Assembly (NCBI GenBank): GCA_964342815.1
Contig: CAYFHS010000041.1
Location: 1 to 37,023, forward strand
DNA length: 37,023 nucleotides
Reading direction: 5' to 3'
Origin: an uncultured archaeon
GTDB taxonomy: Archaea; Thermoplasmatota; Penumbrarchaeia; JASLWR01
The notes beneath the pieces are model-generated. The model made no database searches and was not told where the DNA came from. It was given only the letters and a program-made list of their open reading frames with translations. A program made the translations under genes and the position numbers. How positions within the stretch are numbered: position 1 is the first letter of the stretch; the number at the start of each line of letters is the position of its first letter. Shown one piece after another: positions 3,702 through 28,470 of this stretch.

Positions 3702-3724
3702 TTGATTTCGTGTTTATTACACAC

Positions 3725-3931: not shown

Positions 3932-3934
3932 GTG

Positions 3935-4422: not shown

Positions 4423-4726
4423 GAACGGCGTAATTATCATATTCCGATTACCTCCTAAAATCAGGAACACTGAGATATCGAAGTTCTGCCAGAAGTTCTA
4501 CGGCCAGGACAGTTCGTCTCATGGAGGGAAATATCGCTATCACCGTAGAGGCTTACTTGATAGTATTCCATACAGGAAACTTGCTCGTGGTGTGATACTA
4601 CTGCGCTCGGCGGATCTTGATGTAGTTGTTGAATTTCTCAAAGATTACACAAACGAGATTCACATACGGGAGATAAAGCTATCTGAGTATGACGGGGAAT
4701 TATTACAAACAGATAATCTTTTGTAA
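4421..4726 (+). CDS. Unknown 101-aa protein (ORF X2), paralog of X1
   Basis: About 90% amino-acid identity to 275-580. The ATG at 4421 overlaps the palindrome end exactly as in X1; the ORF-track start at 4397 is an extension. Confidence 0.8.
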   Translation: MNGVIIIFRLPPKIRNTEISKFCQKFYGQDSSSHGGKYRYHRRGLLDSIPYRKLARGVILLRSADLDVVVEFLKDYTNEIHIREIKLSEYDGELLQTDNLL

Positions 4727-4736
4727 CAGACTTTCT

Positions 4737-4989
4737 TAATTATTTATTACCAATCTCTGTGTACCCGTTTTCCGCTTGTGTCGTATAGTTATAGTCTGCA
4801 AGTGGCGGTTATGCGTGGGTTTAGGGCAGGGTGCGCCGTATTATAATTCTCACTATGGTGAAATTGGACGTGTGAAATTCTTGGAATGGACGGAGTAATT
4901 TGTATGTGGTGTAAGTGCTTCAAGAAGATCGGTGTGCTATGAAAAACTTTGGTTTTAACGAAAGATGTTGTGCACGAGTAGTGAACAAC
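4737..4989 (+). repeat. Mosaic repeat block 4 (right part)
   Basis: 4737-4813 is colinear with 3496-3572. Hairpin motif at 4772-4805, type II palindrome at 4967-4989. Confidence 0.85.
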
Positions 4990-5001
4990 CACCAGGAGGC
5001 A

Positions 5002-5409
5002 TTATATTATTAAATGTCTGATTTCACCTGTATTGTAGACCAAAACCGAATTCTGACCATTTTTCAGGCTTTTGTCATTTGACCATATCGGAATATGAAG
5101 TTTCAATGCGAGAGCGATGTAGGGAACGTCTTTCACGTCCGGTGAGATTTTTATTGCTTCCTCTACATAGGGCTGGATCTCTTCGATGGGAACGAGTATA
5201 ATCCTTCGCCTGAGAACCTCCAATAATTCATCGAAATCGTCATTGCTTCTTCTGGTTTTTTTCATCAAATATACACGATATTCTTCAAACTCGTAAAATA
5301 GATAATCTGGAGCATGGAGTTGAAAATCCTCTCTGAATAAAAGCTCAGAGGTTAGACCTTCAGTGATCAGGGCTGCAAATAGAATATTTGCATCAACAAT
5401 GAGGTCCAT
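5002..5409 (-). CDS. PIN-domain (VapC-like) toxin
   Basis: LIVDANIL, YEFEE, DVKDVPY and WSNDK supply the acidic PIN residues. Confidence 0.9.
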   Translation of the reverse strand: MDLIVDANILFAALITEGLTSELLFREDFQLHAPDYLFYEFEEYRVYLMKKTRRSNDDFDELLEVLRRRIILVPIEEIQPYVEEAIKISPDVKDVPYIALALKLHIPIWSNDKSLKNGQNSVLVYNTGEIRHLII

Positions 5410-5419
5410 AAAGGCTCCC

Positions 5420-5644
5420 TCATTCCCCGATATAATGCTTGGCAAGTTTCTTGTTCAGTTCGGCACCCAGCTTAATTGCTTCCTCTTCCGTCAGTGTGCT
5501 CTGTGCCTTGAATCGACGTAAGAATTCCAAATCTATTATCTTTTGCCTGATTGCCTGGCGTGCAACTTCCGACCAGTTGATTTCAGGGAACTCTTCCATT
5601 CTCTGTTTCATTTCATTGGGGACTGCAAGGGTCATGGTTACCAT
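5420..5644 (-). CDS. VapB-like RHH antitoxin
   Basis: MVTMTLAVPNEMKQRMEEFPEINWSEVARQAI matches an archaeal antitoxin pattern. It lies upstream of the PIN gene. Confidence 0.85.
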   Translation of the reverse strand: MVTMTLAVPNEMKQRMEEFPEINWSEVARQAIRQKIIDLEFLRRFKAQSTLTEEEAIKLGAELNKKLAKHYIGE

Positions 5645-5826
5645 TGTCTTAATCTCCTTGAACTGTGTAATTATATATATTATGTGTAATTATATAAATC
5701 TATTTCTGATATTTTCCTCGATTTTTTTCGATAAATAAACCATCGTTATGCATTCTCAAATTCGTGAAAACCGATATTTTATTGGTTTATGCGAAGTCGT
5801 GTTCTTCGTTTGTACTATCATGTGGC

Positions 5827-6135
5827 CGTCTGCCCCATGCCTCCAAAATCACCTCACAACTTCGTCCGGCTCCCCTTTGCCCATCACCAAAGGGAGCACA
5901 TTTTTTATTTTAAAATGGGCGACTTAGAAGTGAACCGAAGGTTTACCTTCGCTAAGTACGATGCCCCCATTCCTACTTTTGTCGTATCGTCACAGTCTGC
6001 GAGTGGTGATCATCTCCGCATTTGGGGCGCGAGCCATATATTTGTCTTGAGGCTGTTGGTTTTTTTTATATGTGTTTGGTTATGTGCAGTACTGCACGTA
6101 ATTTCTTATTACCAATCTCTGTATCCCCGTTTTCC
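5827..6135 (+). repeat. Mosaic repeat block 5
   Basis: CGTCTGCCCCATGCCT at 5827, hairpin motif at 5973-6006, palindrome at 6079-6102. About 58 bp around the palindrome are identical to 3472-3529. Confidence 0.9.
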
Positions 6136-6208
6136 ACCTTTTTCATCAGTTCACGGTCAGCGATCCGTTTTAATAATCCCCGATCATCTGCACTTGAAGT
6201 AAAACTTC

Positions 6209-6598
6209 CTACAATTCGTTTGCACCCCGAATTTCTATGCCCATGTATCTCTTGAGATCACGGAGGTGTTTATCCCCCGATACAATAAGATCTACTTTTC
6301 CCGAATAGGCAGCTTCTAGTATCATATTATCTGTAGGATCCTCTTTGATGATGTCGATCTTCCTTGTTGGAAAAACAACTTCTGAAAATATAAGAATCTC
6401 TTCAACGTATGCATTGATCTTGTCGTTCGGAACTTCAAATTTCTCAAGAAGTACCCTTTCTACCTCGTCTAATATCGAAGGTGACGTTATTAACTGGTAA
6501 TTGCCTTTTTTACAATCATATAGAACTCAACGTTCATTTCCGTTCCAGAAAAAAGCGGAGATATAAATATTCGTATCGAGTACCAATTTCTTGTACAA
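6209..6598 (-). pseudogene. PIN-domain toxin with in-frame TGA (absent from the ORF track)
   Basis: TTG start after GGAGG. Reads MYKKLVLDTNIYISAFFWNGNER*VL...EDPTDNMILEAA...IVSGDKHL. TGA at 6527-6529; 130 codons in total. Confidence 0.9.
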
Positions 6599-6601
6599 AA
6601 C

Positions 6602-6868
6602 CTATCCTCCCTTTTCCCGACTCTCAGCGATCGCCTTTGCCACATCGACCTTTTTGATCTTTTTCCGCTTTGCGAATTCTTCGCCCCATTTCAAGAGTGC
6701 TTCGAATTCATTTTTGGAAGGAACATTCAACCTTTTCAACACTATGGTATCATCGTTTCCAAACATTGCGAATATTTCACCCGAGGATATTCCAAGTAAT
6801 TCCCTTAATCTTTTTGGAACAACTATCTGACCCTTCGATGACATTTTCGTGATGGCCACTTCACTCAT
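6602..6868 (-). CDS. AbrB/MazE/SpoVT-family antitoxin
   Basis: TKMSSKGQIVVPKRLRELLGI..GE motif, directly upstream of the PIN pseudogene. Confidence 0.9.
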   Translation of the reverse strand: MSEVAITKMSSKGQIVVPKRLRELLGISSGEIFAMFGNDDTIVLKRLNVPSKNEFEALLKWGEEFAKRKKIKKVDVAKAIAESREKGG

Positions 6869-6961
6869 TGTTAGCACCTACTTATAGTAAGATAATAAGA
6901 CTATCTTACTATTTAGTTTTATTGAATATCTTGTTTTTTTTTTTTAAAAACGCTCCTTTAA

Positions 6962-7045
6962 TCCTTTTCCTCCCCCAAACTCTGCAAATTCTTTTCATCC
7001 TCAATCCCCACTCCCCGGCTCTCCGTCCACTTCGCTCCCCATCAA
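6962..7045 (+). repeat. Degenerate partial repeat (C-rich tract plus CCCGGCTC motif)
   Basis: CCCCCAAACTC...CCCCGGCTC resembles 4170-4215 and 1550-1580. Confidence 0.45.
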
Positions 7046-7099
7046 TATTGGTGTGGTGCTGTACCGGTACTTCGTGACTATCTAACATAATTTTCATAA

Positions 7100-10000
7100 C
7101 TAATACTGCCGATAAGGGCTCGGCCCAAGGGCACGGAGGTCTTCAATGGTGTCTCTGATGATCTGTGCGAACTTTGGACCCTCTGATGCAGATACCCACT
7201 CCAGCCGGTATCTCTCAGGCTCCAGTTCGAAATCTTCCAGCAATAGATCTATTGTATCGGCACGGGCCTTGGCCTTCAGATTTCCCTCGAGATAATGGCA
7301 GTCCCCGGGATGGCAGCCGCACATGAGAACACCATCAGCTCCGGCCAGGAGTGTCTCTATAACAATGGTGGGGTGCACCATCCCTGAACACATTACACGA
7401 ATGATCCTGACGTTCGGGGGGTACTGAAATCTGGCAACTCCCGCAAGGTCCGCACCGGTATATGAGCACCAGTTGCAGCAGAAGGCAACAAGCCTTGGCT
7501 CGAAATCCTCTTCAGGCGGCCCCTCGCCGGTTATTTCCACGGCTGTTTTACCCTGCGACATTATCTGCTCATACGTGAATCCTCTTACATACACTCCTAA
7601 CTTCGGACATGTTGCCATACAGACTCCGCAGCCCTTGCACAGTGCTTCATTGACCTCAACAGTCTTTTTTATCTGACCGTCTCTCATGTATTCAACAAGC
7701 GTTATTGCATTGAATGGACACGGGTCCACACAGTATGCGCATCCGTCACAGTACTTGTCTACAACAAATGACAGCCTCGGTGATTTTTCCATTGTGTCAT
7801 GAGATATCAGGGTGCACGCTCTGGATGCAGCAGCAAAGGCCTGAGATATTGTTTCAGATATGGATCTGGGTGAATGCGCAAGTCCCGCCATGAAAATCCC
7901 CTCCGTGGCAAAGTCAACAGGCCTGAGCTTGACATGAGCCTCTAAAAAGAAACCATCGGTGTTTGTGGGGACCTTTAACAATTTTGCTAGTTCTTCATTG
8001 GTCTCCGGAGGAACCATTGCGGCGCTGAGCACCAACAGGTCTGGATTAATTGCCAGTACCTCGTCCAGTATTTTATCTCTGATCCTGACCTGCAGTACAC
8101 CATCAACACTTTCAACCAACGGTCTTCCATCCACGTCGTATCTGATGAAGATGACTCCTCTCTCCCTTGCCTCTTCATATGCCTTTTCCTTAAATCCATA
8201 AGTCCTGATATCTCGGAATATGATAAAGATCTGTGTGTCGGGGTCCGCATCCTTTATCTTTATGGCATTTTTTACAGCTTCCGTACAGCAGACCCTGCTG
8301 CAGTAAGGCCTCTCTTCATCACGGGAACCCACGCACTGTATCATTACCACCGTTTTACCTACAGGGCCGCCGTCCGCTATTTTCTTTTCAAGCTCCAGTT
8401 GTGTAATTACTTTTTCGTTTTTACCATACAGATATTCATCAGGCTTGAGTTCGTTGGCCCCGGTAGCAACTATGATTGTTCCGTGTTCGATCATTGATTC
8501 GGAAATCCCATCACGGACCGTGCTTTCATAATTTCCCACGTATCCATTGATAGCCTTTACTGTTGAGTCGGTAAATATCTTGATATTCGGGTTCTCTTCA
8601 ACCCTATTTATCAGTGAAGCAAGATATCCCTGTATGTTATCATTCTCCAAAGTATAATGAAGATTTATCAGGTTGCCTCCTAGATGCCCCTCTTTTTCAA
8701 CAATATATGCAACATATCCCTGATCTGCTATTGCCAGTGCAGCTGTCATTCCTGCAAGCCCTCCTCCGATTATCAGTCCCTTCTGTATAACGGGCCGGTA
8801 TATCGGTTCAAGAGGCTCAAGCAGCCTGGATTTCGTTACTGCAATTCTAACAAGGTCTTTAGCCTTGTCTGTTGCCATGTCCGGAACATTCATGTGAACC
8901 CACGAGCACTGATCCCTGATATTGGCCATCTCAAATAGATACGGATTAAGGCCGGCTTCTCTGAGCATGCTCTGGAATAACGGTTCATGGGTCCTTGGTG
9001 TGCATGAAGAAACGACAACCCTGTTGAGGTTGAGTTCTGTTATCTTTTCTGTTATCTTTTTCTGTGTATCCTGGGAACAGGTGTACAAATTATCCTCGGT
9101 ATATACCACGTTCGGAAGTGTTTTTGCATATTCTACAATTCCCGGAACATCCAGATACCCTCCAATATTAAAACCACAGTTGCATACAAAGACCCCGATC
9201 CTGGGTTCCTGCCCTTCAACACTGATCTCGGGAGGGTATTGCTTCCCAACAACAAGCGAATCCCTTTCTTGGGATATCAATGCACTTGCCTCCGCAGCAG
9301 CTCCGGATCCCCCTATTACGGTTTCAGGAATGTCTTTTGGCCCGGCAAAGGCCCCGCAGACAAAAACACCTTTTTTTGATGTTTTGACCGGAGTAAGCTC
9401 CGATGTGGAACAGAAATTGTATTCATTGAGTTCTATGTCCAGTATCTCGGACAGCTTTTTTACTTCTTCAGGGGGCTCAAATCCGGTACACAGTACTACC
9501 AAGTCGAATTCCTCTTCAACTATTTGCCCCTCGGTTTCATATCGTATTGCTAGATTTTTGCTTTCTTCTAATTCTTCAACCGATGCAACCCTGCAGTTCA
9601 CAAAATTCACACCGCCCTCGTTTTTAGCCCTTTCATAATAGGCTTCAAAGCCCTTCCCAAAGGTTCTCCTATCTATGTAAAATATTGTAGCTTCAAGAGT
9701 TTTCACATGCTCTTTAGCAATCACCGCTTCTTTTATGGCATATGTGCAGCAAACAGATGAGCAGTAATTGTTTCCGCGGTGCCTGTCTCGAGAACCCACA
9801 CAGTTGATCCACGCAACCTTTTTGGGTTCTGATTCATCTGATGGCCGAATGACATGTCCCTGATAGGGTCCGGATGCTGAAAGGATCCGTTCAAATTCCA
9901 GTGATGTCAACACGTTTGCGAATCTCTTGTAGCCGTATTCGTTTGTTCGTCTTGCATTGAACATCTCAAAACCTGGAGCCATGATTATGGATCCGACATT

Positions 10001-11959
10001 GATGTTTTCAAAAGTATCTGTCATGCTGAGGTCGATGGCATCGGCTTCACAAGCGGCTTGACATTGAAGGCATTCACAACAAATTGAACAAGATAGACAC
10101 CTCTTAGCTTCGGCAATTGCTGTATCTTCGTCATAACCGAGTTCAACTTCTCTGAAATCCTTGATCCTTTCTTCAGGAGGGGCCATGGGCATATGTTTTC
10201 TTGCCTCCGCAGCCACCTCTTCTCTGAGATGATCGATTGCATATTCTTCAGCACAGCGCCCCTCCTTTAGATCCCTGCCTGAGATATATCTGTCTATTGA
10301 CTCTGCAGCATCAAATCCGTCTCTTACAGCTTCAATAACCGAGGCCGGTCCTCTCCTGATATCTCCCCCTGCAAATACTCCTTCAATACTGGTTTCCAGG
10401 GTGATCTCTTTTGCCTTGATAGTGCCCCATGGATTTGCTTCTATTTCATCAAAGCCATTTCTATTTGGGCGCTGCCCTATGGCAATGATCACCGTATCGC
10501 AGTTAAATTGCGGCCCGGCTTCATCTGAGAACTCCGGTGCGAAATTGTGGTCATCATCATAGACCTTTGTGCAGTTTACCGTTTGAAGTCCTGTAACTTT
10601 TCCGCCCTCTGCATTGATGGTTTTGGGACCCAGTGATCCGTGGATGCTTATTCCCTCGTCTTCACCCTCCTCGATCTCCCACGCATGTGCCGGCATTCGA
10701 TGGCGGCTTGATAGGTCCCTTGTCTCCAGGCAAACGATATCTACCTTTTCAGCCCCGAGACGGACTGCAGATCGAGCACAGTCCATAGCTACATTGCCCC
10801 CCCCGATCACAATGATCCTCTTTCCGAATCCCATAGGTGCCTTTTCCCCTTTGGCATCTCTGAGGAACGGGATACCGTAGAGAACCCCACTGCTGTCAGC
10901 TCCGTCTATCTTTAATCTGGCTGGATCCTGATATCCAATTGAAATAAAGATTGATCCGTATTCTTTTTTCAGGTCCTCAAAACTGATATCTCTGCCAACT
11001 CTCGTTCCTGTTTTTATCTCGATCCCTTCATCAAGTATCCTGTTTATGTCAAACATCGTTGTTTTTTCATCGATACGGTAATTGGGCATACAGGATGTCA
11101 TCATGCCTCCCGGTTTATCCGCAGCATCTATTACTGTTACCGGATATCCTCTTTTTGTGAGCTCCCGGGCACAGGTCAATCCTGCAGGTCCAGCACCGAT
11201 AACTGCTATCTTTTCATCTTTTAAAGGGATGAGTTTTTCAGCTTTCCCCTCACCATTTTCCATGACCCAGTCTGCTGCAAACCTTTTTAGCGGCCTGATA
11301 GCAACAGGTTCATCAACAGTTCCCCTGAGACACTGGTCCTCGCAGGGATGATGGCAGACACGCCCGCAAATTGCTGGAAACGGGTTTCTCTCTCTTACAA
11401 GGTTAAGAGCTTCGGCATACTTTCCCATTCCGATGAGCTGGATATATCCCTGTGCATTGACAAACGATGGGCATGTAACCTTGCACGGTGATTTTTTGTC
11501 CAACTTGTCAACAACACATTTGTTCGGAATTGCCTGTGGATATAATTTGTATATGGCGTGCCTGATTGCCAGGCATTCGTCAAATTCGGAATCCAGATCA
11601 ACCGGACAGACAGTTGTACATTCCCCGCATCCTGTACATTTTTCAAAATCTACAAATCCCGCCTTCCTACGTATCCGGACATCGAAGTTTCCTGCCTCTC
11701 CACTTACCTCTTCAAGCTCAGAATACGTGATCATCTCGATATTCGGGTGCCTTCCCACATCCACGAGTTTAGGCGACATCGTACACATTGCACACTCATT
11801 TGTCGGAAACGTTTTGTCAAGCTGAGCCATGTGCCCGCCTATGGATGGTTTTTTCTCCAGAAGATACACCTTAAAACCGCTCTCTGCCAGATCAAGTGCT
11901 GACTGCATACCGCCTATTCCACCGCCCACCACCAGTACTGCACCAACTTTGTCTCCCAT
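7100..11959 (-). CDS. hdrA: Large HdrA/HdrL-type flavo-iron-sulfur protein with inserted NAD(P)H-binding domain and C-terminal MvhD fusion
   Basis: GGGIGG...LDKTFPT motif; GltD/NfnB-like insert (CGRVCHHPCE, GAGPAG, GGGNVAMD); two CVGSRD...YCS.VCC motifs; ferredoxin motifs; MvhD motifs CNWCSY, CSG and GCHPGDCHY. GGAGG precedes the ATG at 11959. Confidence 0.93.
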   Translation of the reverse strand: MGDKVGAVLVVGGGIGGMQSALDLAESGFKVYLLEKKPSIGGHMAQLDKTFPTNECAMCTMSPKLVDVGRHPNIEMITYSELEEVSGEAGNFDVRIRRKAGFVDFEKCTGCGECTTVCPVDLDSEFDECLAIRHAIYKLYPQAIPNKCVVDKLDKKSPCKVTCPSFVNAQGYIQLIGMGKYAEALNLVRERNPFPAICGRVCHHPCEDQCLRGTVDEPVAIRPLKRFAADWVMENGEGKAEKLIPLKDEKIAVIGAGPAGLTCARELTKRGYPVTVIDAADKPGGMMTSCMPNYRIDEKTTMFDINRILDEGIEIKTGTRVGRDISFEDLKKEYGSIFISIGYQDPARLKIDGADSSGVLYGIPFLRDAKGEKAPMGFGKRIIVIGGGNVAMDCARSAVRLGAEKVDIVCLETRDLSSRHRMPAHAWEIEEGEDEGISIHGSLGPKTINAEGGKVTGLQTVNCTKVYDDDHNFAPEFSDEAGPQFNCDTVIIAIGQRPNRNGFDEIEANPWGTIKAKEITLETSIEGVFAGGDIRRGPASVIEAVRDGFDAAESIDRYISGRDLKEGRCAEEYAIDHLREEVAAEARKHMPMAPPEERIKDFREVELGYDEDTAIAEAKRCLSCSICCECLQCQAACEADAIDLSMTDTFENINVGSIIMAPGFEMFNARRTNEYGYKRFANVLTSLEFERILSASGPYQGHVIRPSDESEPKKVAWINCVGSRDRHRGNNYCSSVCCTYAIKEAVIAKEHVKTLEATIFYIDRRTFGKGFEAYYERAKNEGGVNFVNCRVASVEELEESKNLAIRYETEGQIVEEEFDLVVLCTGFEPPEEVKKLSEILDIELNEYNFCSTSELTPVKTSKKGVFVCGAFAGPKDIPETVIGGSGAAAEASALISQERDSLVVGKQYPPEISVEGQEPRIGVFVCNCGFNIGGYLDVPGIVEYAKTLPNVVYTEDNLYTCSQDTQKKITEKITELNLNRVVVSSCTPRTHEPLFQSMLREAGLNPYLFEMANIRDQCSWVHMNVPDMATDKAKDLVRIAVTKSRLLEPLEPIYRPVIQKGLIIGGGLAGMTAALAIADQGYVAYIVEKEGHLGGNLINLHYTLENDNIQGYLASLINRVEENPNIKIFTDSTVKAINGYVGNYESTVRDGISESMIEHGTIIVATGANELKPDEYLYGKNEKVITQLELEKKIADGGPVGKTVVMIQCVGSRDEERPYCSRVCCTEAVKNAIKIKDADPDTQIFIIFRDIRTYGFKEKAYEEARERGVIFIRYDVDGRPLVESVDGVLQVRIRDKILDEVLAINPDLLVLSAAMVPPETNEELAKLLKVPTNTDGFFLEAHVKLRPVDFATEGIFMAGLAHSPRSISETISQAFAAASRACTLISHDTMEKSPRLSFVVDKYCDGCAYCVDPCPFNAITLVEYMRDGQIKKTVEVNEALCKGCGVCMATCPKLGVYVRGFTYEQIMSQGKTAVEITGEGPPEEDFEPRLVAFCCNWCSYTGADLAGVARFQYPPNVRIIRVMCSGMVHPTIVIETLLAGADGVLMCGCHPGDCHYLEGNLKAKARADTIDLLLEDFELEPERYRLEWVSASEGPKFAQIIRDTIEDLRALGPSPYRQY

Positions 11960-11960
11960 G

Positions 11961-12863
11961 TCAGGCACCTCCGTTTGCTTGGACCTTTTCAAGCAGGGGT
12001 GAAACCTTAACCTGGTTTATCTTTACCGCAAGGTCCTTTTTGGGGTCCAGCCCCATGGCGATTCCCAGAAGCTGTGAATAAAATAATACGGGGATATTGT
12101 ATTCTGCATCAAAACTTGTTTCTATTGTGGGTTGGTACTCGTCATACATAATGCTGCAGAACGGGCAGAGCAGTGTCATTGCATCTGCTTCAGCTGTTTT
12201 GATATTGTCCAGCTTTTCTTTGACCATCTTTACAGAAGTGTCTTCGGATATTGAAAGTATACCGCCGCCGCAGCACTGGAGCCTGTTTTTGTATCTTACG
12301 GAAGTAGCTCCTGTTACCTCGATCAGTTTGTCCAAACTCACAGGGTTTATGGGGTCGTCGAAGCCGTCAAATATCGTTGAGGGTTTTATGTAATGGCACC
12401 CATAATGGGGTGCGATGGTAAGACTGGTGAGAGGATTTGTAACGGCCTCTTTTACCTTGTCCAATCCGACATCTTCATACAGCACCCTGGCAAAATGTTT
12501 TACCTTGGTATTTCCCTTGTATTCAAGGTTTGAACCGCCTAGATAATCGTTTATCTTTTTTTGTTCCTCTGTGCCTCGAGGACTGCTCAGATGTTTCTGG
12601 GCCTTTGTCAGGTGTCCCGTACAGGCACTGCAAAGTGTCATGATGTCAAGTCCCTGGGCCTCCGCAAGTGCAAGATTTCTTGCAGCCAACGTTAAACCTG
12701 TCTCATGATGAACTCCTGCTATAGGAAAACCACAGCATGCGAAATCGGTTATGTCAACAATTTCAATTCCAAGCCTATCTGCAACCTTTCTTGCTGAGAG
12801 TTCATAGTTCAATCCCCTTACTGGGACTGTACAACCGAGAAACAATGCATATTTACTCATCAT
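11961..12863 (-). CDS. hdrB: Heterodisulfide reductase subunit B-like protein
   Basis: Two CCG domains (ACCGF...CSAC and CCGGG...CPFC); located between hdrC and hdrA. Confidence 0.93.
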   Translation of the reverse strand: MMSKYALFLGCTVPVRGLNYELSARKVADRLGIEIVDITDFACCGFPIAGVHHETGLTLAARNLALAEAQGLDIMTLCSACTGHLTKAQKHLSSPRGTEEQKKINDYLGGSNLEYKGNTKVKHFARVLYEDVGLDKVKEAVTNPLTSLTIAPHYGCHYIKPSTIFDGFDDPINPVSLDKLIEVTGATSVRYKNRLQCCGGGILSISEDTSVKMVKEKLDNIKTAEADAMTLLCPFCSIMYDEYQPTIETSFDAEYNIPVLFYSQLLGIAMGLDPKKDLAVKINQVKVSPLLEKVQANGGA

Positions 12864-13356
12864 TGTCTCCTCCAACTATGTCCATAACTCCAGTTTTATC
12901 CATGAGAGATTTGATGTCTGGAATCTCTGCTTTTAGAAGGGGAATGTCTTTTTTTTCCCGGACTTTATTTTCAAACTCAGATACCTCCAGCAGTCTTCCA
13001 TATTTTTCCAGCAATTCCAAACTGGCCATGTGTGCATCTGGTAAATGTCCATTCTTTACTGCGATATTTCTGATAGCACCCATAAGGTCAGTGATCTTCA
13101 CATCACGGGGGCACAGTTCATAACAATTGTAGCATCCCGAACACAGCCATATAAAATCACTTTTCAACACCACTTCTTTCATTCCCAGAATCACCATTCT
13201 GATTATCTTTCTGGGATTGTATTCAGGATTCGTTGCAAAAACAGGGCATGAAACTGTGCATGTGCCGCATGCAAAACAGTTCTTTATATTCTCCCCTCCA
13301 TGAACTTTTGCAACTTCGGACTTAAAATCAGGGTTCATTTCGTGTACATTGATCAT
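12853..13356 (-). CDS. hdrC: Heterodisulfide reductase subunit C-like protein
   Basis: CFACGTCTVSCP and CSGCYNCYELCP give two [4Fe-4S] motifs. It overlaps the hdrB start. The start could be 13368. Confidence 0.93.
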   Translation of the reverse strand: MINVHEMNPDFKSEVAKVHGGENIKNCFACGTCTVSCPVFATNPEYNPRKIIRMVILGMKEVVLKSDFIWLCSGCYNCYELCPRDVKITDLMGAIRNIAVKNGHLPDAHMASLELLEKYGRLLEVSEFENKVREKKDIPLLKAEIPDIKSLMDKTGVMDIVGGDNDE

Positions 13357-13559
13357 TTCCTTCCACATCCAGATGTTTCAAATCGAAACAATGCAAATAG
13401 TTTTTTATTATTTCGACATATGTTTTGTTTTTTGTTATTTCAGACATCTGTTCAAATATTTTTTTATGGACAACTGGACTTTCTGTTTTTCCTATCTCCA
13501 TTCCACTTGCACTGCATTTCTACCCCACGCGCTCGCCCATTCCCTGCGTCGTCATGGTG

Positions 13560-18691: not shown

Positions 18692-21600
18692 TCAACCGAA
18701 CTTCTTATCGTCCGGTATCTTCCCCGTATTTATCATCTCGTAGTCCGTCATCCGGTCGATCACATTTCCCTTCTCGTCCATGATCTCCACATCGTAATGA
18801 GTTACCCTCATGGGATCCTCCCCGGTTTCTCCCCTGTAAACGATCCGTGAAGTGAAATTCTTCGATTTCTTGGGTACCTCATAAAACTCGACCTTTTTTA
18901 TACCATTGGGTAACGACATGTTATCCCTGTGGTACATGTCGAACATACCGCAGGTCTGGAACCCGAACTCCCGGAACATGGGGCCGCTGAAGAAATGATA
19001 TTTATCGGTAAATGAGAAGAAATCTCCCACCGGCTCCCTGAACCTACCCCATCCAACCGCGTTCTTTTTTATTTTCTTACCGAGATCAGCCACGCTTCCA
19101 AGCACCTGGAAAGTGGGACCGTGGAAAAACCGGCTGTAGATACCGTCGAAATCGATAACTTCTCCCTTGGGGATCTTTCCTCTCTTCCCTTTCACCGACT
19201 TTGGCAGTTCGTTCTTCATTGTCACCGTTCCGGTAAAATGAATTCTTGGATCGCCCATTTTCAATCCCTGAGGATTGATGAAATCGCTCTCCACTGTTAC
19301 GTTTATAACTGCTTTTTTCTTGCTAACTTTGGCCGCCTCGCCAATTATTCTCACTTCAAGCGGGCGGTTCCGCAGGAGTTTTATAGGCATCTTGAATACG
19401 ATATCGTTTATCTCCACCGGATATAATTCCGGAAACATCAATCTCGAAGTCTGTGCAAACACTTCAACGCCCATTACCCCGGGCAGGTAGGGAGTCCCGG
19501 CAATGGAATGGTCTGTAAGATACAGGTCAACTTTTGTGTCGAGTTTTTTTTCCAGAATTATTTTTTTTCCAGGCTCGTGATGGTCCACCCTGTCAATGAG
19601 GGTGTATTCCGGCTTGTTATTATCAATAATTTGCTGCAGATCCCAGCTTTCTGGTGTCTGTCCGTCAGGAAGTATTATCTTGTCGGCATCCAGAAACGCT
19701 ACTTTTCCAGCAATGGTAACCTCGTTTTCCGGTCCGGAGTACAGTAATTCCTCACGAACCTTTTTCTTGCCGTACTCGAGAGGGATTAATGTTACTCCCG
19801 CATCGTCGAATATCTTCAACAGCGAGCCTCTGGTGGCCATGCCCACGCCTCTCCATCCGGTCCAGTTGGTACTTATGGATTTGCATTTTTTCCCGTACCG
19901 TTTCTGGTTAAGGTCCATGTACTTGTTCAAAAGATCGTTTGCCGATGAATAGTCCACCTGGCCAATGTTCCCGAACCGGCCCGCCACTGATGAGAACGTC
20001 ACGAACGCCTTAACATTATCCTTTTTCGTACTCTCGAATAGATTGAATGCCCCGTTTGCCTTCACGTCGAATACAAAAGCAAACTGTTCTGGTGGTTTTG
20101 CCGTGATAAGCTTTGATATTTCAATACCCGCAGCGTGTATTATGCCGTCGATTCGCCCGTATTTCTTTCGGACCTTGCTAAGGACTTCATTTATCCTATT
20201 ATGATCGGTCACGTCCGATGTGAAAAACTCCACGGTGGCCCCCATTTGTTCCATTTCCTTCATGTTGTTGTAAATGGTACGCGGCATGGTATATTTTTTG
20301 AATTCCCGCTCAACCATCACCGGGGTTGCCCGTTCACCACTGTCCTTCATCTCTTGGAATATTTTATTTTTCAATTCTTTTAACCCGTTCTCATCAAGAG
20401 CTGCAAGTTCCTCGATGTTATTGGGCATCTCAACGATATCGAGAAGGATCAAAGTGGGCTTGAAGTGAGCCGCGAGGTCCTTTGCGATCTCCGCTGTGAT
20501 ACCGAAACCCCCGCCTGGTATGACAAAGACCCAGTCCCCGGTAATATCGAGATTGGGTTTCTTGCTTGGATCCACCGCCCTATGATACATCTGAGCTATC
20601 TTTCGTACTCCTGCCTTGTAGCAAACTTCCAAACGCCCGTCCCCGTAACGTATCTCATTAACAATAAGCTTAGATGCCTTACCGGGTGATGTGAGTTTGC
20701 CGATATCGATGCATTTCACCTTTACCTTTTCGATTTCCTTGCCCAGGGCCTTCGTAAACCCGGTGATACCTCCGACAATGGGAGTTTTATATGTACCGTC
20801 TCCTTCCACACCGAATGAGCCTCCCATCTCTACAGCTGTCACAAAGAAACTACCGTTAGAAACCGATTCCGTAAGATCGCTTATGGTGGCCTTGGAAATC
20901 GCGAAGAGCGACTTTACCTTCTTTTTCGTTGCGCTCTTCCAGTCATCAAAATCCATCTTGTCAATTTCGGGTTCGTCGTCGAGACCCAGAAGATAAATTA
21001 CTCCACCCACCGACCCAAAGTCAGATTTTACCTTCCCCATTACTACTTTTTGAATTTCATAATCGGAAAGATCGAAGCTGTACGATCCCTTTTTCAGTTT
21101 TTTCTTGTCTGAATACAGGAAATCGATGACATTCGCCCCTTCTTTCTTCAGCAGCTTCTTGATCTCCTTTCCAACCCCCTTTTTATCCTGGACTATTATC
21201 AGGTTTAATCCTTTTAAATCGAGATTTACTTCGTCATTCAATGATTTCGGCACGTATCTTGTGAGGTATCTTCGCAGGTCCCTAGCCTCTCCCACAAGTT
21301 CAGGTTCCTCCACCTCAGCACCCTCGGGGGCAGGATCTTCCATTACTGTTTCATTCGTTCCTTTGACAAAGGAAACGTCATCACTAGAAACCCTTCCGGC
21401 AATGTATTGGGCAACGCTGCCTATTGTGGTATATTCGGAAAGATTTACACCTTCTTCTTGTTCAAGATTATAATGTTCACGGATGGCGGCAAACAACTCT
21501 ACCTGTTTCACAGTGTCTATCCCCAGGTCGGCCTCCATGTCGAGGTCAAGCTCCAGCATGTCCGGCGGGTATCCTGTCTTTTCGGCAACGATATCTATTA

Positions 21601-24600
21601 CCACCTTTTCGATCCCACTGGGCCCGCTAACGGATAAATCACCCTGACTTACGGATACTTCCTTCGCAGTTGTCTCCACGCTCATGGATTCACTGGCGGA
21701 ATCCGAGCTAGTCATTCCCAACCTCCCTGCGATGTAAGCAGCAACACTCCCTATTGTGGTGTATTCCGAAAGGTTCACTCCTTCCTCCTGTTCTAGTTCG
21801 TAATGTTCGCGGATAGCGGCGAATAGTTCCACCTGTTTTACAGTGTCTATCCCCAGATCGGCCTCCATGTCAAGGTCTAATTCAAGCATGTCCGGCGGAT
21901 AGCCTGTCTTCTTGCTTACTATGTCAAGTACAACCCTTTCGATCCCGCTGAGTTCGGTACCCAGCACGCCGGTCGTTGTAGCGGTATGGTCTGACCTGGG
22001 GGAAACACCCCCCGCACCCTTCTCACCGGCGATTGTTTCTGTTACCGTATCCGGGATTTCCTCGCCCAAGCTGCCTGCGATGTATTGGACCACGCTGCCT
22101 ATGGTTGAATAATTCGACAGGTTCACACCTTCTTCCTGTTCGAGTTTGTAATGTTCGCGGATAGCGGCAAACAGCTCTACCTGCTTCACCGTGTCTATGC
22201 CGAGGTCTGCCTCCATGTCGAGATCTAACTCCAGCATGTCCGGGGGATATCCGGTCTTCTCGCTTACTATGGAGATTACGACCTGCTCCAATCCGCTGGT
22301 GACACTGCCAGGTTCCATGACTATATCTTCGGGGGCACTCTGGTATGATTCACCCAGCCTGCCGGCGATATAACCAACGACACTGCCGATCGTCGAATAC
22401 TCTGAAAGGTTAACCCCCTCCTCCTGTTCGAGTCCGTAATGTTCGCGGATAGCGCCAAAGAGCTCCACCTGTTTTACAGTATCGATACCAAGGTCTGCCT
22501 CCATGTCGAGATCCAGTTCAAGCATATCAATGGGGTACCCGGTCTTCTCGCCTACAATTGCAATAACCGTTTTTTCAATTCCACCTTGAGGAGTGGATGG
22601 AGTAATGGAGGGTTGGGGGGGGGAGGGAGAAGGGGAAACCAAAGGTACAGGGGTCGGTGCCGCTACTACCTTAGGGGGTAACGCAGGGATTTTTGAAATT
22701 GCGCTCCCTTTGGCACGGGAAAGATCGTCCGTTATTCGAAGTGTTTTGTTAACCACTTCTATCTTGGCCACTCTCTGCTGTGATATCCTGTGAAGCCATC
22801 CGTCATATGTACCCTTATCAATAATCCTGAATTCATCAGTGTTCACTATCTTTGTAAGCGTCATTGCGATTTGTGAGCCGAAACCGGCTGAGAATCTCAA
22901 TGCGTATTTGTAGTATTTTCGTTCCCCCTTGGAGAGTCGGAGTCCCTCTAGGTAAGGGTCAGGTACTTTGTAATTCGCTATGGGCGGGATCTTGCCTTTT
23001 TGGAGCAATCTGATAGCGATGACATCCTCTATGCCGCATCCGAAAGCGTGACCGGTGAAACCCTTTGTGTTGGTGATAAGTATCTTCTTGTAATCCTCGC
23101 CGAAAGTGCCCTCGAGAGCGTCCTTCTCCGCGTTGGAACTGCCGCCTCTTGCCGGAGTGTACGTTTCATGGGATATGAAGACCATGTCATCCACGAGACT
23201 TTTCCTTGCAAACCCGTACCTGCGCTCCAATCTCTCGAAGAAATGATTCATCTCTGCCGCCACATGTTTTGTGTCCAGGCGCGTGGCATGATAGGCGCTG
23301 TTCGCCATGTAGGTACCCATCAATTCCACTATCGGGTCCATGCCTCTATTTGCCACATCTTCGGCCCGTTCCAGTACCATCCCAGCAGCCCCCATTCCGA
23401 CTATGAGCCCTTTTCGCCTTTTATCGAAGGGAAGCGCCGCTTCTTCAAGATTTCCCTCGGTAGTTGCAGCTCCATTGGCCAACAGGGATGTTACCAGCCA
23501 TTCCATGTTGTACTTTGCAGTTGGAGCATCTCCCGAAATGAGAAGTACACGCCGGCATCTACCCATCCTGAGGAGATCCTCCGCCATACCCACTCCCTGA
23601 GTGGTTGTTGCACAGGCCGAGTTATTATGTATGTTCGGACCCCTGGCATTGATGAGCTGAGCGAACTGGGCATGACCGAGGGAGAGAACATTGAGCATGA
23701 ATTTTCTGTTGAATTCGTAAACCGGCATATCGTCGAGTCCATTGGATAGGTCCGAGTACAGAGTGGCGAACCGGTCTGTGAGCTCCTTTTTGATGTCATC
23801 ATTTTCCACCCTGCTTATTAGGGATGCGTAAAGGTTCAGAAGCTCCCGTTTCGCCCCGGGCCCGTATTTGTCCATATAATATTCCGATGTCAATTTCAGA
23901 AGTTGGTCATAACCCGGAAAAGTGGTGGAAAAAATTATCGCCGTATCCTCCTGCATTTCTGGGGGAAGCTCCCAGTTCCCTGGAAGATAATTACCCGTTG
24001 ATGTTCGGTTGTACTTCTTGACAAGAGGTATCCCGGCGTCTCTCATGGCTTCCAGTCCGGCGGCAATGGCCAGCATGGAGGATATATCTAGTGCCTTTAT
24101 AAGTTCTTCTTCGATCCCATATTCTTTGTGAAGGTCGAATCGCCCCATCTGGCCCGCCAGTTTGATCACATGGGAATCATCCTCGATCCTCTCAAAGTGA
24201 GCCTGGCCGTTACTGGCCTTGAAAAGCTTTACGATGTTCTTGTCCAGGAACTTTTTTCGATACTCCTTATCTATTGTATCTATCAGGTTTACACCATCAA
24301 GGATGAGATCGGTATTCTTCTCATCGAAAACTTTTTTGAATTTCCCCGGAAGACCAAGTCCGGCTCCAGTGATAACTATTTGATCAAGATAGAGGTTCAA
24401 GTTCTTTACCTTCCTGCCAAGTTCGATGTATTCCGCTATCTCCGGGGTTGCGACCTTATTTGTCATCTGAAGCGGCGGTGCAAATCTCTCTTTCGACATT
24501 CTCATCTCCGGATGAATGTCGGTTTGGGCCCCTGGAGCCCTTGCTCCCATGGCTCTGCCGGCTGATATAAATTGAGTGGTAAAGAGATTTCCGTCATTGG

Positions 24601-27600
24601 AAGGGTCATACTGTTTTATCGGAACACCACAGGAACTGAGTGCGGCCAATGCTTCGTTAAATGATTGGATTCCTCCCTTCTTCGGATGATTAGTGAGGAT
24701 TGCTCTGTGAGGCCGTTCGCTGAATATGTTTTTAACAGAGATGGTAAGGGCCCTTTTTGATCCCACTTCCACGAAAACCTTGACCCCGAGTTCATTGTAC
24801 ATGGTTTCCATTTCCTTTACCCATTCCACCGCCCCGGCCACCTGTTCCTTCAAAATATCGCGGATCTCTTCCGGGGCGTCTTCCCCGGTGGGATAAAGTC
24901 CGCCGTGGACATTGGTCAATGTTGGTATTTTCGGAGCATGAATTGGTATATTGGAGAGAAATCTCCGAAGAGGTTTCTTTGCCGGGGCGACGATGTTGGA
25001 ATGAAATGCATGAGAAACGGGCAGCATGATGCAGTTCACGCCCGATTCCTTTAGTTTTTCCACAGCATCTACTACCGCCTGGCTTTCTCCAGAGATCACG
25101 TTTTCTCGGTAAGAATTCTTGTTCGCTACAATTGCATAACCTTCGATCGAATCCAGTACTTCCTGCACTTTCATCTCATCTGCTCCGATTGATGCCATCT
25201 TACCTTTATCGTCTATCTGTACATTGGCCATCTCCCTGCCTCTGGCGGCAGCAGCACGAAGGGCGCTCTCGAAATCCATCACACCACTGGCCACCAGAGC
25301 GCCGTACTCACCTAGTGAATGACCGGCAACAGCTGCGGGCTTAACCCCGAATTGATTCAGCAAGCGATATAGTGCGATGTCCCCGGTTATCATTGCCGGC
25401 TGAGTGATCTCGGTCTTCCTGAGATCGGCGATCTTCCCCTTGACAATATCTTGGTCTTCACCATCATCCGAAAAAATTATATCAGTTAGAGGTCTTCCAT
25501 TGATACCCGTCATAATTATGTCGGATTCATCGAAGGTTTCCTTGACTATTCGGTATTTTTCACCCAGATCCCTGAGCATGTTGAGATATTGGGAACCCTG
25601 GCCCGGAAAGATGAAACCCACCGTGGGAATATCTCCATCCCCCGATTTTATTTCATTTATCGATTCCGGGTCGTTATAAAATATCCCTCTGGTTTCCAGA
25701 ACGAACATCCTGTCTCGATTTTCCAGATGTTCCCAAGATAGGTTCAGTTTTGCTATGAGATCTTCGGGGTTTGGGGAGGCAATGCTGAGGCGGTATCCGT
25801 TATTATTAACCGGTCCTAAATGAGTGTTAATATTATGGGTGAATTCCGAGAGCCTGAATCCTGCGAGCGATTTTTCGCGCTCCAATCCCTCCTTGACTTC
25901 ATGAACCATCTTTTTTAATTCCTTAAGGTTGGCCGACGTTAGGCAAAGCATAGTCCCTTCCAGATGCTCCTTATTCTCCAGATACTCATCCAGATCGAAA
26001 TCGGATGGGATATATTCTTGCACATCTGGTGCCGATGTTTTTACTATTGAATCCAAACTTTGCGTTTTCCGTACATGGGGTAGTTGAACTTGGGGTATGG
26101 ATACCGGATATTGTCCTGTGTATTCCTCAAGGGTTATATGAAAGTTGGATCCCCCGAAACCGAAAGAACTCACACCGCCTCGCAGCGGATATTCCCTCCC
26201 GTTTATAATTGGTCTTTTCCAGGGCTTTTGCTCTGTTGCTACGTAAAGAGGTGTTTTCCCTAGATCGATCTGATTGTTGGGCACTCTGTAATTGATTGTG
26301 GGTGAAATTATCTTCTTATTCAGCGCCAGGATCATTTTTATCATCCCTGCTACTCCCGCGGCGCTTTTCAGGTGGCCAATTTGGGATTTTATGGAACCGA
26401 TTCCCACAGATCCCTTCCCAAGATTGCACTTTGACCATATGTCGGCAAGGGTCTGGAGCTCCACTGCATCTCCCACAACGGTTGATGTTCCGTGGGCTTC
26501 AACAAGCGTCACCGTCTCGGGACCATAACCGGCCTTATCGTGGGCCATCTCTATAGCCTGGAGCTGGCCCGGGGGATTGGGGGCAGTTATCCCCTTCCCT
26601 TTTCCGTCGCTTGAAGATCCGATCCCCCGGATCACCGCATATATCCGATCTCCGTCCTCCATGGCATCGGATAGACGCTTCATGACCAGTATTCCGGCAC
26701 CTTCCCCCATGACAAAGCCGTTGGCTCCGGCATCGAACGGCCTGCTACCGTCCTTGGACAGAGCGCCGATCTTGCAGAATTTAATATAGGTAGGAGGGTT
26801 CATTGTCCTGTCGACTCCCCCAGTTATCACCATGTCATAATCCCGGGCCCAGAGTCCCTTTATGGCAGTGTCTATAGCTGCCAGTGACGAGGCGCATGCT
26901 GCATCGGTGGTAAAGTTTGCTCCCTTGAAATTGAATACACTGGCGACCCTTGCGGCTACAATATTTGATAATTCTCCGGGCATTGTATCTTCATTTACAG
27001 GGGGCAGCCCCATGGAAAACTTTTCTTCCATCCTTTTAATGGCTTCGATCTTCTCCAATTCCGGAACGGAAGTGAATAATCCGTTCTCCTCAGCTACCTT
27101 GATGAACTCCTGAAGATGAATTCTGTTGTTGTTGATATCCCGATATTCCCCTCCTTGGGCGTTAGCAATGATAACCGCGATCCTGGTTCGGTCAATATCC
27201 TTGTGGTGATATCCCGAGTCTTCCCAGGCTTGTTTTGTAGCGGCCAGGGTCCAGAGCTGGATCGGGTCCACGTGTGCCACTGTGGTTGGCGGTATCCTGA
27301 AAGCGAGCGGATTAAATTGAAATCCATCCACAAAAGCACCGATTTTCGAGTATGTCTTGTTCAGAACTGTGGGGTCGGGGTCATAAAAAATATCTTTATC
27401 CCATCTATCATCGAAGATCTCTCTGATGGAATCCTTCTTTGATCGGATGTTGTTCCAGAAGCTATCAATTGTGAGAGCATCGGGCATGATGCAGCCCATA
27501 CCGATGACGGCAATAGGCTCAAATTTTGATTTGTAATAATCCTCGAAGAATTCGTTGTGGATCAGTGGATCACCCACAGATGAATCTGTGGATGGAGATC

Positions 27601-28273
27601 TCCCTGGTTCTTCGGATTCATCCTCATTGTTTATTCCCTCTGTAGGAGCTTCGGTGGCCGATGCCTCAATTTTTTCTTCCGGCTCCGCTTTGATAGGTTC
27701 CCCCGTTTCCACTGCACCGACTCGCTCTGCGATAAAATCCACAACACTGCCAATGGTTGGATATTCGGATAGATTTACACCTTCTTGGGAGGGCAGATCG
27801 TATTCTTCACGTATGGCTGCAAATAGTTCAACCTGCTTTACCGTGTCGATTCCGAGATCAGCTTCCATGTCGAGATCAATTTCCAGCATGTCCGGAGGAT
27901 AGCCCGTCTTTCCGGCAACTATCTCAAGAACTCTTTTACTGATATCGTTTTTTGCAGGCCCCTCAACGCGGTTTTCGTTTTCGATTGAAACGGGCTCAGT
28001 CGCTTCCGGCCTTATCTCAACCCCTATTCTATTGGCAATAAAATCAACAACATTGCGAATAGTGGGATAATCGGACAGGTTTACGCCTTCTTCAGTATCC
28101 AATTCGTATTGTTCCCGTATGGCGGCAAATAGCTCTACTTGTTTAACCGTGTCGATCCCGAGATCAGCTTCCATGTCAAGGTCCAATTCTAGCATGTCGG
28201 GAGGATACCCTGTTTTTTCAGATACTATGTCAAGGACCTTCCGTTCGATGTCTGTTATATTATTTGTAGGCAT
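18692..28273 (-). CDS. Type I iterative PKS/FAS-like megasynthase: ACP-ACP-KS-AT-KS-ACP-ACP-ACP-ACP-KR-DH
   Basis: KS1 has DAACASS, EAHGT and GHLKSAAG. AT has GHSLG and HAFH. KS2 has SACATT, SHET and GHAFG. There are six LGIDTVKQ ACPs. KR has GGGFGI and YSSAN. DH has HSIAGTPYLP. The ATG at 28273 follows GGTG; the ORF track starts at 28300. Confidence 0.95.
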   Translation of the reverse strand: MPTNNITDIERKVLDIVSEKTGYPPDMLELDLDMEADLGIDTVKQVELFAAIREQYELDTEEGVNLSDYPTIRNVVDFIANRIGVEIRPEATEPVSIENENRVEGPAKNDISKRVLEIVAGKTGYPPDMLEIDLDMEADLGIDTVKQVELFAAIREEYDLPSQEGVNLSEYPTIGSVVDFIAERVGAVETGEPIKAEPEEKIEASATEAPTEGINNEDESEEPGRSPSTDSSVGDPLIHNEFFEDYYKSKFEPIAVIGMGCIMPDALTIDSFWNNIRSKKDSIREIFDDRWDKDIFYDPDPTVLNKTYSKIGAFVDGFQFNPLAFRIPPTTVAHVDPIQLWTLAATKQAWEDSGYHHKDIDRTRIAVIIANAQGGEYRDINNNRIHLQEFIKVAEENGLFTSVPELEKIEAIKRMEEKFSMGLPPVNEDTMPGELSNIVAARVASVFNFKGANFTTDAACASSLAAIDTAIKGLWARDYDMVITGGVDRTMNPPTYIKFCKIGALSKDGSRPFDAGANGFVMGEGAGILVMKRLSDAMEDGDRIYAVIRGIGSSSDGKGKGITAPNPPGQLQAIEMAHDKAGYGPETVTLVEAHGTSTVVGDAVELQTLADIWSKCNLGKGSVGIGSIKSQIGHLKSAAGVAGMIKMILALNKKIISPTINYRVPNNQIDLGKTPLYVATEQKPWKRPIINGREYPLRGGVSSFGFGGSNFHITLEEYTGQYPVSIPQVQLPHVRKTQSLDSIVKTSAPDVQEYIPSDFDLDEYLENKEHLEGTMLCLTSANLKELKKMVHEVKEGLEREKSLAGFRLSEFTHNINTHLGPVNNNGYRLSIASPNPEDLIAKLNLSWEHLENRDRMFVLETRGIFYNDPESINEIKSGDGDIPTVGFIFPGQGSQYLNMLRDLGEKYRIVKETFDESDIIMTGINGRPLTDIIFSDDGEDQDIVKGKIADLRKTEITQPAMITGDIALYRLLNQFGVKPAAVAGHSLGEYGALVASGVMDFESALRAAAARGREMANVQIDDKGKMASIGADEMKVQEVLDSIEGYAIVANKNSYRENVISGESQAVVDAVEKLKESGVNCIMLPVSHAFHSNIVAPAKKPLRRFLSNIPIHAPKIPTLTNVHGGLYPTGEDAPEEIRDILKEQVAGAVEWVKEMETMYNELGVKVFVEVGSKRALTISVKNIFSERPHRAILTNHPKKGGIQSFNEALAALSSCGVPIKQYDPSNDGNLFTTQFISAGRAMGARAPGAQTDIHPEMRMSKERFAPPLQMTNKVATPEIAEYIELGRKVKNLNLYLDQIVITGAGLGLPGKFKKVFDEKNTDLILDGVNLIDTIDKEYRKKFLDKNIVKLFKASNGQAHFERIEDDSHVIKLAGQMGRFDLHKEYGIEEELIKALDISSMLAIAAGLEAMRDAGIPLVKKYNRTSTGNYLPGNWELPPEMQEDTAIIFSTTFPGYDQLLKLTSEYYMDKYGPGAKRELLNLYASLISRVENDDIKKELTDRFATLYSDLSNGLDDMPVYEFNRKFMLNVLSLGHAQFAQLINARGPNIHNNSACATTTQGVGMAEDLLRMGRCRRVLLISGDAPTAKYNMEWLVTSLLANGAATTEGNLEEAALPFDKRRKGLIVGMGAAGMVLERAEDVANRGMDPIVELMGTYMANSAYHATRLDTKHVAAEMNHFFERLERRYGFARKSLVDDMVFISHETYTPARGGSSNAEKDALEGTFGEDYKKILITNTKGFTGHAFGCGIEDVIAIRLLQKGKIPPIANYKVPDPYLEGLRLSKGERKYYKYALRFSAGFGSQIAMTLTKIVNTDEFRIIDKGTYDGWLHRISQQRVAKIEVVNKTLRITDDLSRAKGSAISKIPALPPKVVAAPTPVPLVSPSPSPPQPSITPSTPQGGIEKTVIAIVGEKTGYPIDMLELDLDMEADLGIDTVKQVELFGAIREHYGLEQEEGVNLSEYSTIGSVVGYIAGRLGESYQSAPEDIVMEPGSVTSGLEQVVISIVSEKTGYPPDMLELDLDMEADLGIDTVKQVELFAAIREHYKLEQEEGVNLSNYSTIGSVVQYIAGSLGEEIPDTVTETIAGEKGAGGVSPRSDHTATTTGVLGTELSGIERVVLDIVSKKTGYPPDMLELDLDMEADLGIDTVKQVELFAAIREHYELEQEEGVNLSEYTTIGSVAAYIAGRLGMTSSDSASESMSVETTAKEVSVSQGDLSVSGPSGIEKVVIDIVAEKTGYPPDMLELDLDMEADLGIDTVKQVELFAAIREHYNLEQEEGVNLSEYTTIGSVAQYIAGRVSSDDVSFVKGTNETVMEDPAPEGAEVEEPELVGEARDLRRYLTRYVPKSLNDEVNLDLKGLNLIIVQDKKGVGKEIKKLLKKEGANVIDFLYSDKKKLKKGSYSFDLSDYEIQKVVMGKVKSDFGSVGGVIYLLGLDDEPEIDKMDFDDWKSATKKKVKSLFAISKATISDLTESVSNGSFFVTAVEMGGSFGVEGDGTYKTPIVGGITGFTKALGKEIEKVKVKCIDIGKLTSPGKASKLIVNEIRYGDGRLEVCYKAGVRKIAQMYHRAVDPSKKPNLDITGDWVFVIPGGGFGITAEIAKDLAAHFKPTLILLDIVEMPNNIEELAALDENGLKELKNKIFQEMKDSGERATPVMVEREFKKYTMPRTIYNNMKEMEQMGATVEFFTSDVTDHNRINEVLSKVRKKYGRIDGIIHAAGIEISKLITAKPPEQFAFVFDVKANGAFNLFESTKKDNVKAFVTFSSVAGRFGNIGQVDYSSANDLLNKYMDLNQKRYGKKCKSISTNWTGWRGVGMATRGSLLKIFDDAGVTLIPLEYGKKKVREELLYSGPENEVTIAGKVAFLDADKIILPDGQTPESWDLQQIIDNNKPEYTLIDRVDHHEPGKKIILEKKLDTKVDLYLTDHSIAGTPYLPGVMGVEVFAQTSRLMFPELYPVEINDIVFKMPIKLLRNRPLEVRIIGEAAKVSKKKAVINVTVESDFINPQGLKMGDPRIHFTGTVTMKNELPKSVKGKRGKIPKGEVIDFDGIYSRFFHGPTFQVLGSVADLGKKIKKNAVGWGRFREPVGDFFSFTDKYHFFSGPMFREFGFQTCGMFDMYHRDNMSLPNGIKKVEFYEVPKKSKNFTSRIVYRGETGEDPMRVTHYDVEIMDEKGNVIDRMTDYEMINTGKIPDDKKFG
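21400..22575 (-). repeat. Four tandem ACP-coding repeats inside the PKS (two more at ~27735-28250)
   Basis: Repeated KTGYPxDMLELDLDMEADLGIDTVKQVELFxAIRExY units, visible at DNA level with synonymous divergence. Confidence 0.95.
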
Positions 28274-28470
28274 TTTTACACCTTTTCGTTGGTGTGGCAA
28301 ATGGGCCGAAAAATTTTCAATTGAGTATGAAATAATCTTATATAACTCTATTATCTAATGAACCACTGTGAAATTTATATTATTCAGTGGAATTCTCGAG
28401 AAAGACGACCTGACAAATGTGATTTCAAAGAGAAAAACATATCATGGATTACAAAATGAGATATTAAAAG

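Follow-up and report, generated by a model that had tools for sequence, protein, structure and literature searches.

The window analyzed here, a 37,023-nucleotide stretch of contig CAYFHS010000041.1 from the genome of an uncultured marine Thermoplasmatota archaeon (GCA_964342815.1), carries on its minus strand a single large open reading frame for a megasynthase whose six acyl carrier protein (ACP) domains all have threonine at the site where the phosphopantetheine-bearing serine is expected. This frame, which holds all six ACP motifs, extends over 18692-28300 if the earliest available start codon is taken. Translation probably begins at the ATG at 28273, since the ortholog from the same genus also begins with MPTNN; this would give a protein of ca. 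3193 amino acids (Table 1). Pfam domains follow each other in the order ACP, ACP, ketosynthase (KS), acyltransferase (AT), KS, four ACPs, ketoreductase (KR) and dehydratase (DH), with two ACPs thus lying ahead of KS1 and four after KS2, and domain analysis of the frame revealed no enoyl reductase, thioesterase or 4'-phosphopantetheinyl transferase (PPTase) domain in the chain.

Table 1. The Type R synthase in the window, its domains and the threonine codons of its carrier sites.
Feature	Positions	Strand	Remarks
Type R (PfaA-related) iterative megasynthase, ACP-ACP-KS-AT-KS-ACP4-KR-DH	18692..28273 (likely start)	-	Pfam domains, TIGR02813, architecture as in PMC3098273
ACP1	28028..28252	-	Thr codon ACG at 28148-28150
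ACP2	27722..27946	-	Thr codon ACG at 27842-27844
KS1	26114..27520	-	PfaA-like; Cys-His-His intact (DAACAS, EAHGTST, GHLKSAAG)
AT	24728..25615	-	Active GHSLG serine and HAFH (malonyl-type) motif
KS2	22841..24373	-	FabF-like; Cys-His-His kept (NSACAT, HETYT, GHAFG)
ACP3	22358..22582	-	Thr codon ACT at 22478-22480
ACP4	22070..22294	-	Thr codon ACG at 22190-22192
ACP5	21722..21946	-	Thr codon ACT at 21842-21844
ACP6	21392..21616	-	Thr codon ACT at 21512-21514; modelled, Thr at helix II position 1
KR (structural and catalytic half)	19721..21253	-	YSSAN tyrosine intact
DH, polyketide synthase-type double hotdog	18701..19618	-	His motif DHSIAGTPYLPG

By its architecture, the protein matches the "Type R" secondary lipid synthases (Shulse & Allen 2011, PMC3098273), pfaA homologs of the layout KS-MAT-CLF-ACP(3-6)-KR (MAT, malonyl-type acyltransferase; CLF, chain-length factor) with a downstream PPTase that were described from Koribacter, Solibacter, Elusimicrobium minutum and Roseiflexus; the text of that article never mentions threonine or serine. 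The archaeal synthase shows the KS-MAT-KS/CLF-ACP(3-6)-KR layout with four internal ACPs, and homologs from the phyla of the original description (Elusimicrobium, Chloroflexota and Korobacteraceae) share its KS-AT-KS-ACPn-KR core as well as the HETxT motif of KS2 and have threonine throughout, whereas the archaeal host and the two extra N-terminal ACPs set it apart from the Type R clusters as described; it also has a C-terminal DH. It also scores above the curated cut-off of the PfaA profile TIGR02813 (1211.7 versus 1010.1 bits) and has the same KS1, AT, KR and DH types as PfaA along with the shared frame KTGYP...MLELD.DMEADLGID. However, PfaA has the layout KS-MAT-ACPn-KR, pfaB/C/D partners and tandem serine ACPs (LGIDSIKR) activated by PfaE, while the archaeal protein has threonine ACPs, a second KS in the same chain and no pfaB/C/D partners beside its gene. 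This second KS corresponds to what the Type R description calls "CLF", yet its Cys, His and His line up with those of FabF, so that it is probably catalytically active rather than a plain chain-length factor; a Type R synthase may thus run two active KS domains. The catalytic motifs of the synthase domains are largely conserved across 94 family members (all 94 of which have the HETxT motif of KS2, this having been the criterion by which the set was selected), and, to judge from its domains and catalytic motifs, the protein is an intact iterative fatty-acid/polyketide synthase of Type R.

PPTases modify a conserved serine, which is regarded as an invariant residue of carrier proteins. It belongs to a D-S motif where helix II begins in the four-helix fold that the ACPs of the archaeal synthase share with those of canonical ACP/PPTase pairs (E. 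coli AcpP/AcpS, EntD, Sfp-type), and precisely there threonine is found in 6/6 of the ACPs, all of which match PF00550 and read DLGIDTVKQ in the translation. Their threonine aligns with the serine of the A. aeolicus ACP (2ehs) and of the PigH ACPs (5y08), and in holo-ACP 7pdi with the residue that bears the modification. A single-sequence AlphaFold2 model of ACP6 (pLDDT 71, i.e. of moderate confidence) has the ACP fold, with other ACPs as its best structural matches (Z 10.7, root-mean-square deviation 2.0, 78 aligned), and predicts the threonine to be the first residue of helix II. An initial annotation made from the DNA of the window had reported the same motif in all six ACPs, encoded by ACG in three copies and by ACT in three, and the translation and codon positions agree on both counts; the span that it assigned to the ACPs (21400-28250) does contain all six, though it encloses the KS-AT-KS part as well. 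Its view that the repeats diverge mainly at synonymous sites and that threonine is kept by selection likewise holds, as pairs of ACP repeats differ over 68 codons by 26-39 synonymous codon differences versus 5-15 amino acid differences, and comparison to the ortholog from the same genus shows synonymous change in 2/5 aligned threonine codons and a changed residue in 0/5. The possibility that another serine takes the attachment position, which had been named as an objection, was checked and no such residue found: a serine at +25 is shared by 6/6 ACPs of this synthase but by no more than 23% of the family, the next commonest serine columns reach 21-23%, and no column of the Type R ACP alignment holds a conserved substitute serine or cysteine.

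The suspicion that threonine might be a family-wide trait proved right. Residue counts from hidden Markov model alignments of 593 Type R ACPs and 134 PfaA ACPs gave threonine in 586/593, serine in 7/593 and any other residue in 0/593 of the former, as opposed to serine in 133/134 of the latter. Among 121 homologs, every protein with HETxT in KS2 has threonine ACPs and every PfaA-type protein has serine, and the same threonine motif recurs in every additional locus read from other families of the Thermoplasmatota. Alanine, valine, cysteine, proline, isoleucine, asparagine, lysine and arginine never occur at the site in the 593 Type R ACPs although six of these (all but valine and cysteine) are one base change away from threonine codons, which points to a needed hydroxyl group rather than to shape alone. 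The change from PfaA to Type R carriers is a coupled one (SIKRVEI to TVKQ(A/V)E), and the step from S-I-K-R to T-V-K-Q may make room in the carrier for the extra methyl group of threonine. The serine variants use both TCG and AGC codons, in a first ACP that is threonine in related synthases. Three fused synthases (from loci L094, L095 and L098) have serine in a divergent first ACP (KTGI[PA], D-S-V-K-Q) and threonine in their remaining ACPs, so that these first ACPs offer a natural in-cis comparison of the two residues.

The host genome encodes two PPTases, an orphan enzyme on contig C4 (about 151,780-152,590) and an AcpS on contig C33. The C4 PPTase is intact, unlinked to the synthase and of the Sfp type, with ~250 amino acids, two PPT half-domains, the motifs G-x-D-x-E and K-E-x-x-x-K and a score above the TIGR00556 cut-off in two stretches; we infer from co-occurrence that it pairs with the synthase. 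PPTase genes lie directly downstream in 4/6 of the bacterial Type R loci that we read, and most synthases of the archaeal family f9 carry the PPTase as a fused domain. Within the class of the host (37 genomes), 25/25 PPTase-positive genomes have the synthase and 0/9 synthase-less genomes have a PPTase, with the apparent exception of genome G007 being explained by a PPTase that sits right behind the KR-DH end of a synthase cut by the contig end. Across 301 Thermoplasmatota genomes, 96 have both a Thr-type ACP and a PPTase, 188 have neither, 5 have the ACP only and 12 the PPTase only, though relatives in a phylum are not independent, so that these counts are inflated by kinship and constitute no statistical test. 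In G008 and G009 (91-93% complete) as well as the single-contig genome G070 (96%), the threonine ACPs of the synthase account for every PF00550 match and PF01648 finds a single PPTase, although PF00550 may miss divergent serine carriers that this enzyme could serve. In G070 it is the gene next to the synthase, and in all three genomes its D-x-E and K-E motifs are intact. The C4 PPTase and the orphan enzymes of G008, G009 and G010, all from family f1, form a clade (support 98/94). The second PPTase of the host, AcpS, is part of a separate bacterial-type type II fatty-acid/polyketide synthase cluster (C33:26400-33400) that further comprises a FabZ-like gene, a KS, two KRs, a nitroreductase-like gene, a long serine ACP and a radical SAM enzyme; its KS is the only other KS match in the host genome.

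The initial annotation had offered Thr-linked phosphopantetheinylation by an unusual PPTase as one of three options. The linkage is the best supported of the three, but the word "unusual" finds no support in the partner enzymes: they keep the D-x-E and K-E motifs standard in canonical PPTases, from which they would differ in the acceptor residue, and they do not resolve as one supported clade. No Thr-specific signature was found among them; a stretch E-x-R-x(2-3)-F after D-x-E is common to the Type R partners but also present in a Methylosinus PPTase.

Most of the six bacterial loci also have an acyl-CoA dehydrogenase upstream of the synthase and/or carboxylase genes nearby, and counterparts of both are present in the archaeal host. 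A 547-amino-acid acyl-CoA dehydrogenase with a C-terminal extension (C6:69662-71302) shares 55-60% identity with the dehydrogenase encoded upstream of the synthase in bacterial Type R loci (60% over 544 amino acids); such a dehydrogenase is present in 26/37 genomes of the class, all 26 with the synthase, a distribution that almost equals that of the synthase itself, and it is a candidate trans enoyl reductase. Carboxylases are represented by a 2113-amino-acid single-chain acetyl-CoA carboxylase-like protein (C13:40568-46906), a kind of gene that also follows the Type R synthase in locus L102, and by a three-gene operon for carboxyltransferase, biotin carboxylase and biotin carboxyl carrier protein (C1:182645-186358). 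Whereas the bacteria have PPTase and carboxylase genes beside the synthase, PPTase, dehydrogenase and carboxylases are all unlinked in the host, which thus has the complete Type R gene set, but dispersed over its genome. Related archaeal synthases vary at their ends: those of family f1 begin with one or two ACPs, and those of family f9 begin with a different domain (possibly an enoyl reductase, given a PF03060 match in P0081) and end with the fused PPTase. A FabI-like gene lies upstream of the G070 synthase; a search of the host genome with this query found no FabI ortholog.

Our preferred reading, which we hold to be probable and the best of those considered, is that Type R ACPs bear a Thr-linked 4'-phosphopantetheine. 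The six ACPs would be ordinary swinging-arm carriers with the arm attached to the threonine hydroxyl at the start of helix II, to which the stand-alone Sfp-type PPTase from C4 would transfer 4'-phosphopantetheine from CoA. The AT would load malonyl on the thiol of the arm and standard thioester chemistry would follow, with condensation by two active KS domains and processing by KR and DH, while the enoyl reduction that the chain lacks may come from the C6 dehydrogenase and malonyl-CoA from the C1 and C13 carboxylases; the product would probably be a long acyl chain or lipid. We favor this reading because threonine lies exactly at the canonical attachment site with no conserved serine or cysteine to substitute for it, because only residues with a hydroxyl group occur there, and because the active sites of the partner domains are intact across the family. 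Further support comes from an intact PPTase being co-retained with the synthase (adjacent, fused or co-occurring), from the three genomes with one PPTase and no other PF00550 carrier, and from the grouping of the C4 enzyme with the orphan PPTases of relatives.

Several points weigh against a Thr-linked arm. Threonine is a hindered secondary alcohol, and no Thr-specific motif was seen among the PPTases of Type R partners, which overall fall into an open polytomy including EntD with no single supported clade. In the host itself, the presumed partner is unlinked and the second PPTase has a serine ACP cluster of its own; the kinship behind the phylum counts and the reach of PF00550 count on the same side. 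A few synthases keep one serine ACP, the seven serine ACPs being first-position ACPs of fused archaeal synthases. Finally, the S36T variant of E. coli ACP is neither phosphopantetheinylated nor acylated nor functional (PMC3340395), so threonine is no drop-in substitute for standard PPTases. The blocked modification of this variant would suit Thr-ACPs that stay apo and act as docking, scaffold or acyl-CoA-presenting domains of a synthase working on CoA thioesters, with the PPTase serving another substrate. CoA-bound intermediates would also fit the conserved acyl-CoA-dehydrogenase-like partner, and serine and threonine are mildly favored at helix N-termini on structural grounds, but we consider apo carriers unlikely since they leave unexplained both a fused or adjacent PPTase that tracks the synthase and serine as the sole replacement of threonine, and no other carrier was found in G008, G009 and G070.

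If the threonine ACPs were instead poorly loaded, function could come from rare holo domains or from a serine carrier in trans (here the C33 serine ACP with AcpS), with tandem repeats as compensation. The serine in seven first-position ACPs and the separate serine ACP and AcpS in both the host and G010 speak for such an arrangement; it is nevertheless improbable, as most family members, including G008, G009 and G070, are without any serine ACP and the C33 genes, which include a KS, KR and FabZ of their own, make up a type II system apart from the synthase. We give even less credence to a different covalent group on the threonine, be it direct O-acylation or a CoA-derived group other than 4'-phosphopantetheine installed by the partner with a PPTase fold. 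The strict requirement for a hydroxyl would agree with it and CoA-derived groups are known from the carriers of citrate lyase and malonate decarboxylase (on serine and by unrelated enzymes), yet the partner keeps canonical Mg/CoA motifs of PPTases, the Cys-His-His chemistry of KS domains needs thioester-bound malonyl, and the examined synthase loci are without a gene for another type of modification. There is next to no chance that the threonine reflects artefact or decay: the initial annotation was right that it is no recent lesion, given an intact 3.2-kaa frame under purifying selection, homologs that number in the hundreds and span many phyla, and the use of two threonine codons in the window. 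Codon reassignment and sequencing error are ruled out by the occurrence of all four ACN codons across the family.

The synthase gene is resident in its archaeal host and not a contaminant. The genome carries an archaeal 16S gene and is that of a Thermoplasmatota archaeon; since synthase orthologs are found in all four genomes of the host family and in 27/37 genomes of the class and the GC content of the contig (0.45) matches the rest of the genome, the gene must belong to it. Its KS2 region shares 94% identity with the counterpart in a metagenome-assembled genome of the Thermoplasmatota, and a search for related loci returned only one near-identical genome. The neighbors of the synthase are unrelated (an endonuclease IV-like gene, an M48 peptidase, Fic and Hdr genes), and the next gene on the same strand encodes the M48 peptidase rather than the directly downstream PPTase of the Type R description; neither a PPTase nor an Rfam match was found within the window. 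Positions 1-7100 form an island rich in toxin-antitoxin genes (three PIN, ParE/RelE, RHH and MazE/AbrB) interspersed with dispersed repeats, resembling a cassette array and including a duplicated small open reading frame of 300 nt without Pfam match (254-553 and 4400-4699; 90% identical). It is followed on the minus strand (7100-13368) by hdrC-hdrB and then the gene for a 1630-amino-acid HdrA-like protein, into which a GltD-like NAD(P)-binding module is inserted and which ends in an MvhD domain.

Since 2011 this synthase family has been known purely at the sequence level, and what is new in this case are the unlinked partner PPTase, the co-occurrence at class and phylum level, and a single-contig genome with only threonine carriers. 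No paper on Thr-linked phosphopantetheine, the threonine of Type R synthases or the DTVKQ motif was found in the open-access literature, a scope that leaves out most subscription journals. With slightly more reserve than for the linkage itself, we think it likely that a cross-domain family of lipid/polyketide megasynthases, present in ca. one-third of the sampled Thermoplasmatota, uses natural Thr-linked phosphopantetheine made by dedicated PPTases, possibly as an orthogonal ACP/PPTase pair and in an archaeal acyl-lipid pathway. Serine-to-threonine exchange serves as a null mutation, as with S36T, and a natural Thr-linked arm, if true, would revise the rule of the invariant serine, restore to the active enzymes many synthases that annotation by motif might dismiss as inactive, and could provide a pair for orthogonal labelling or pathway insulation. 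With Thr-type ACPs in 101/301 Thermoplasmatota genomes, the finding also bears on whether archaea build fatty-acyl chains with ACPs.
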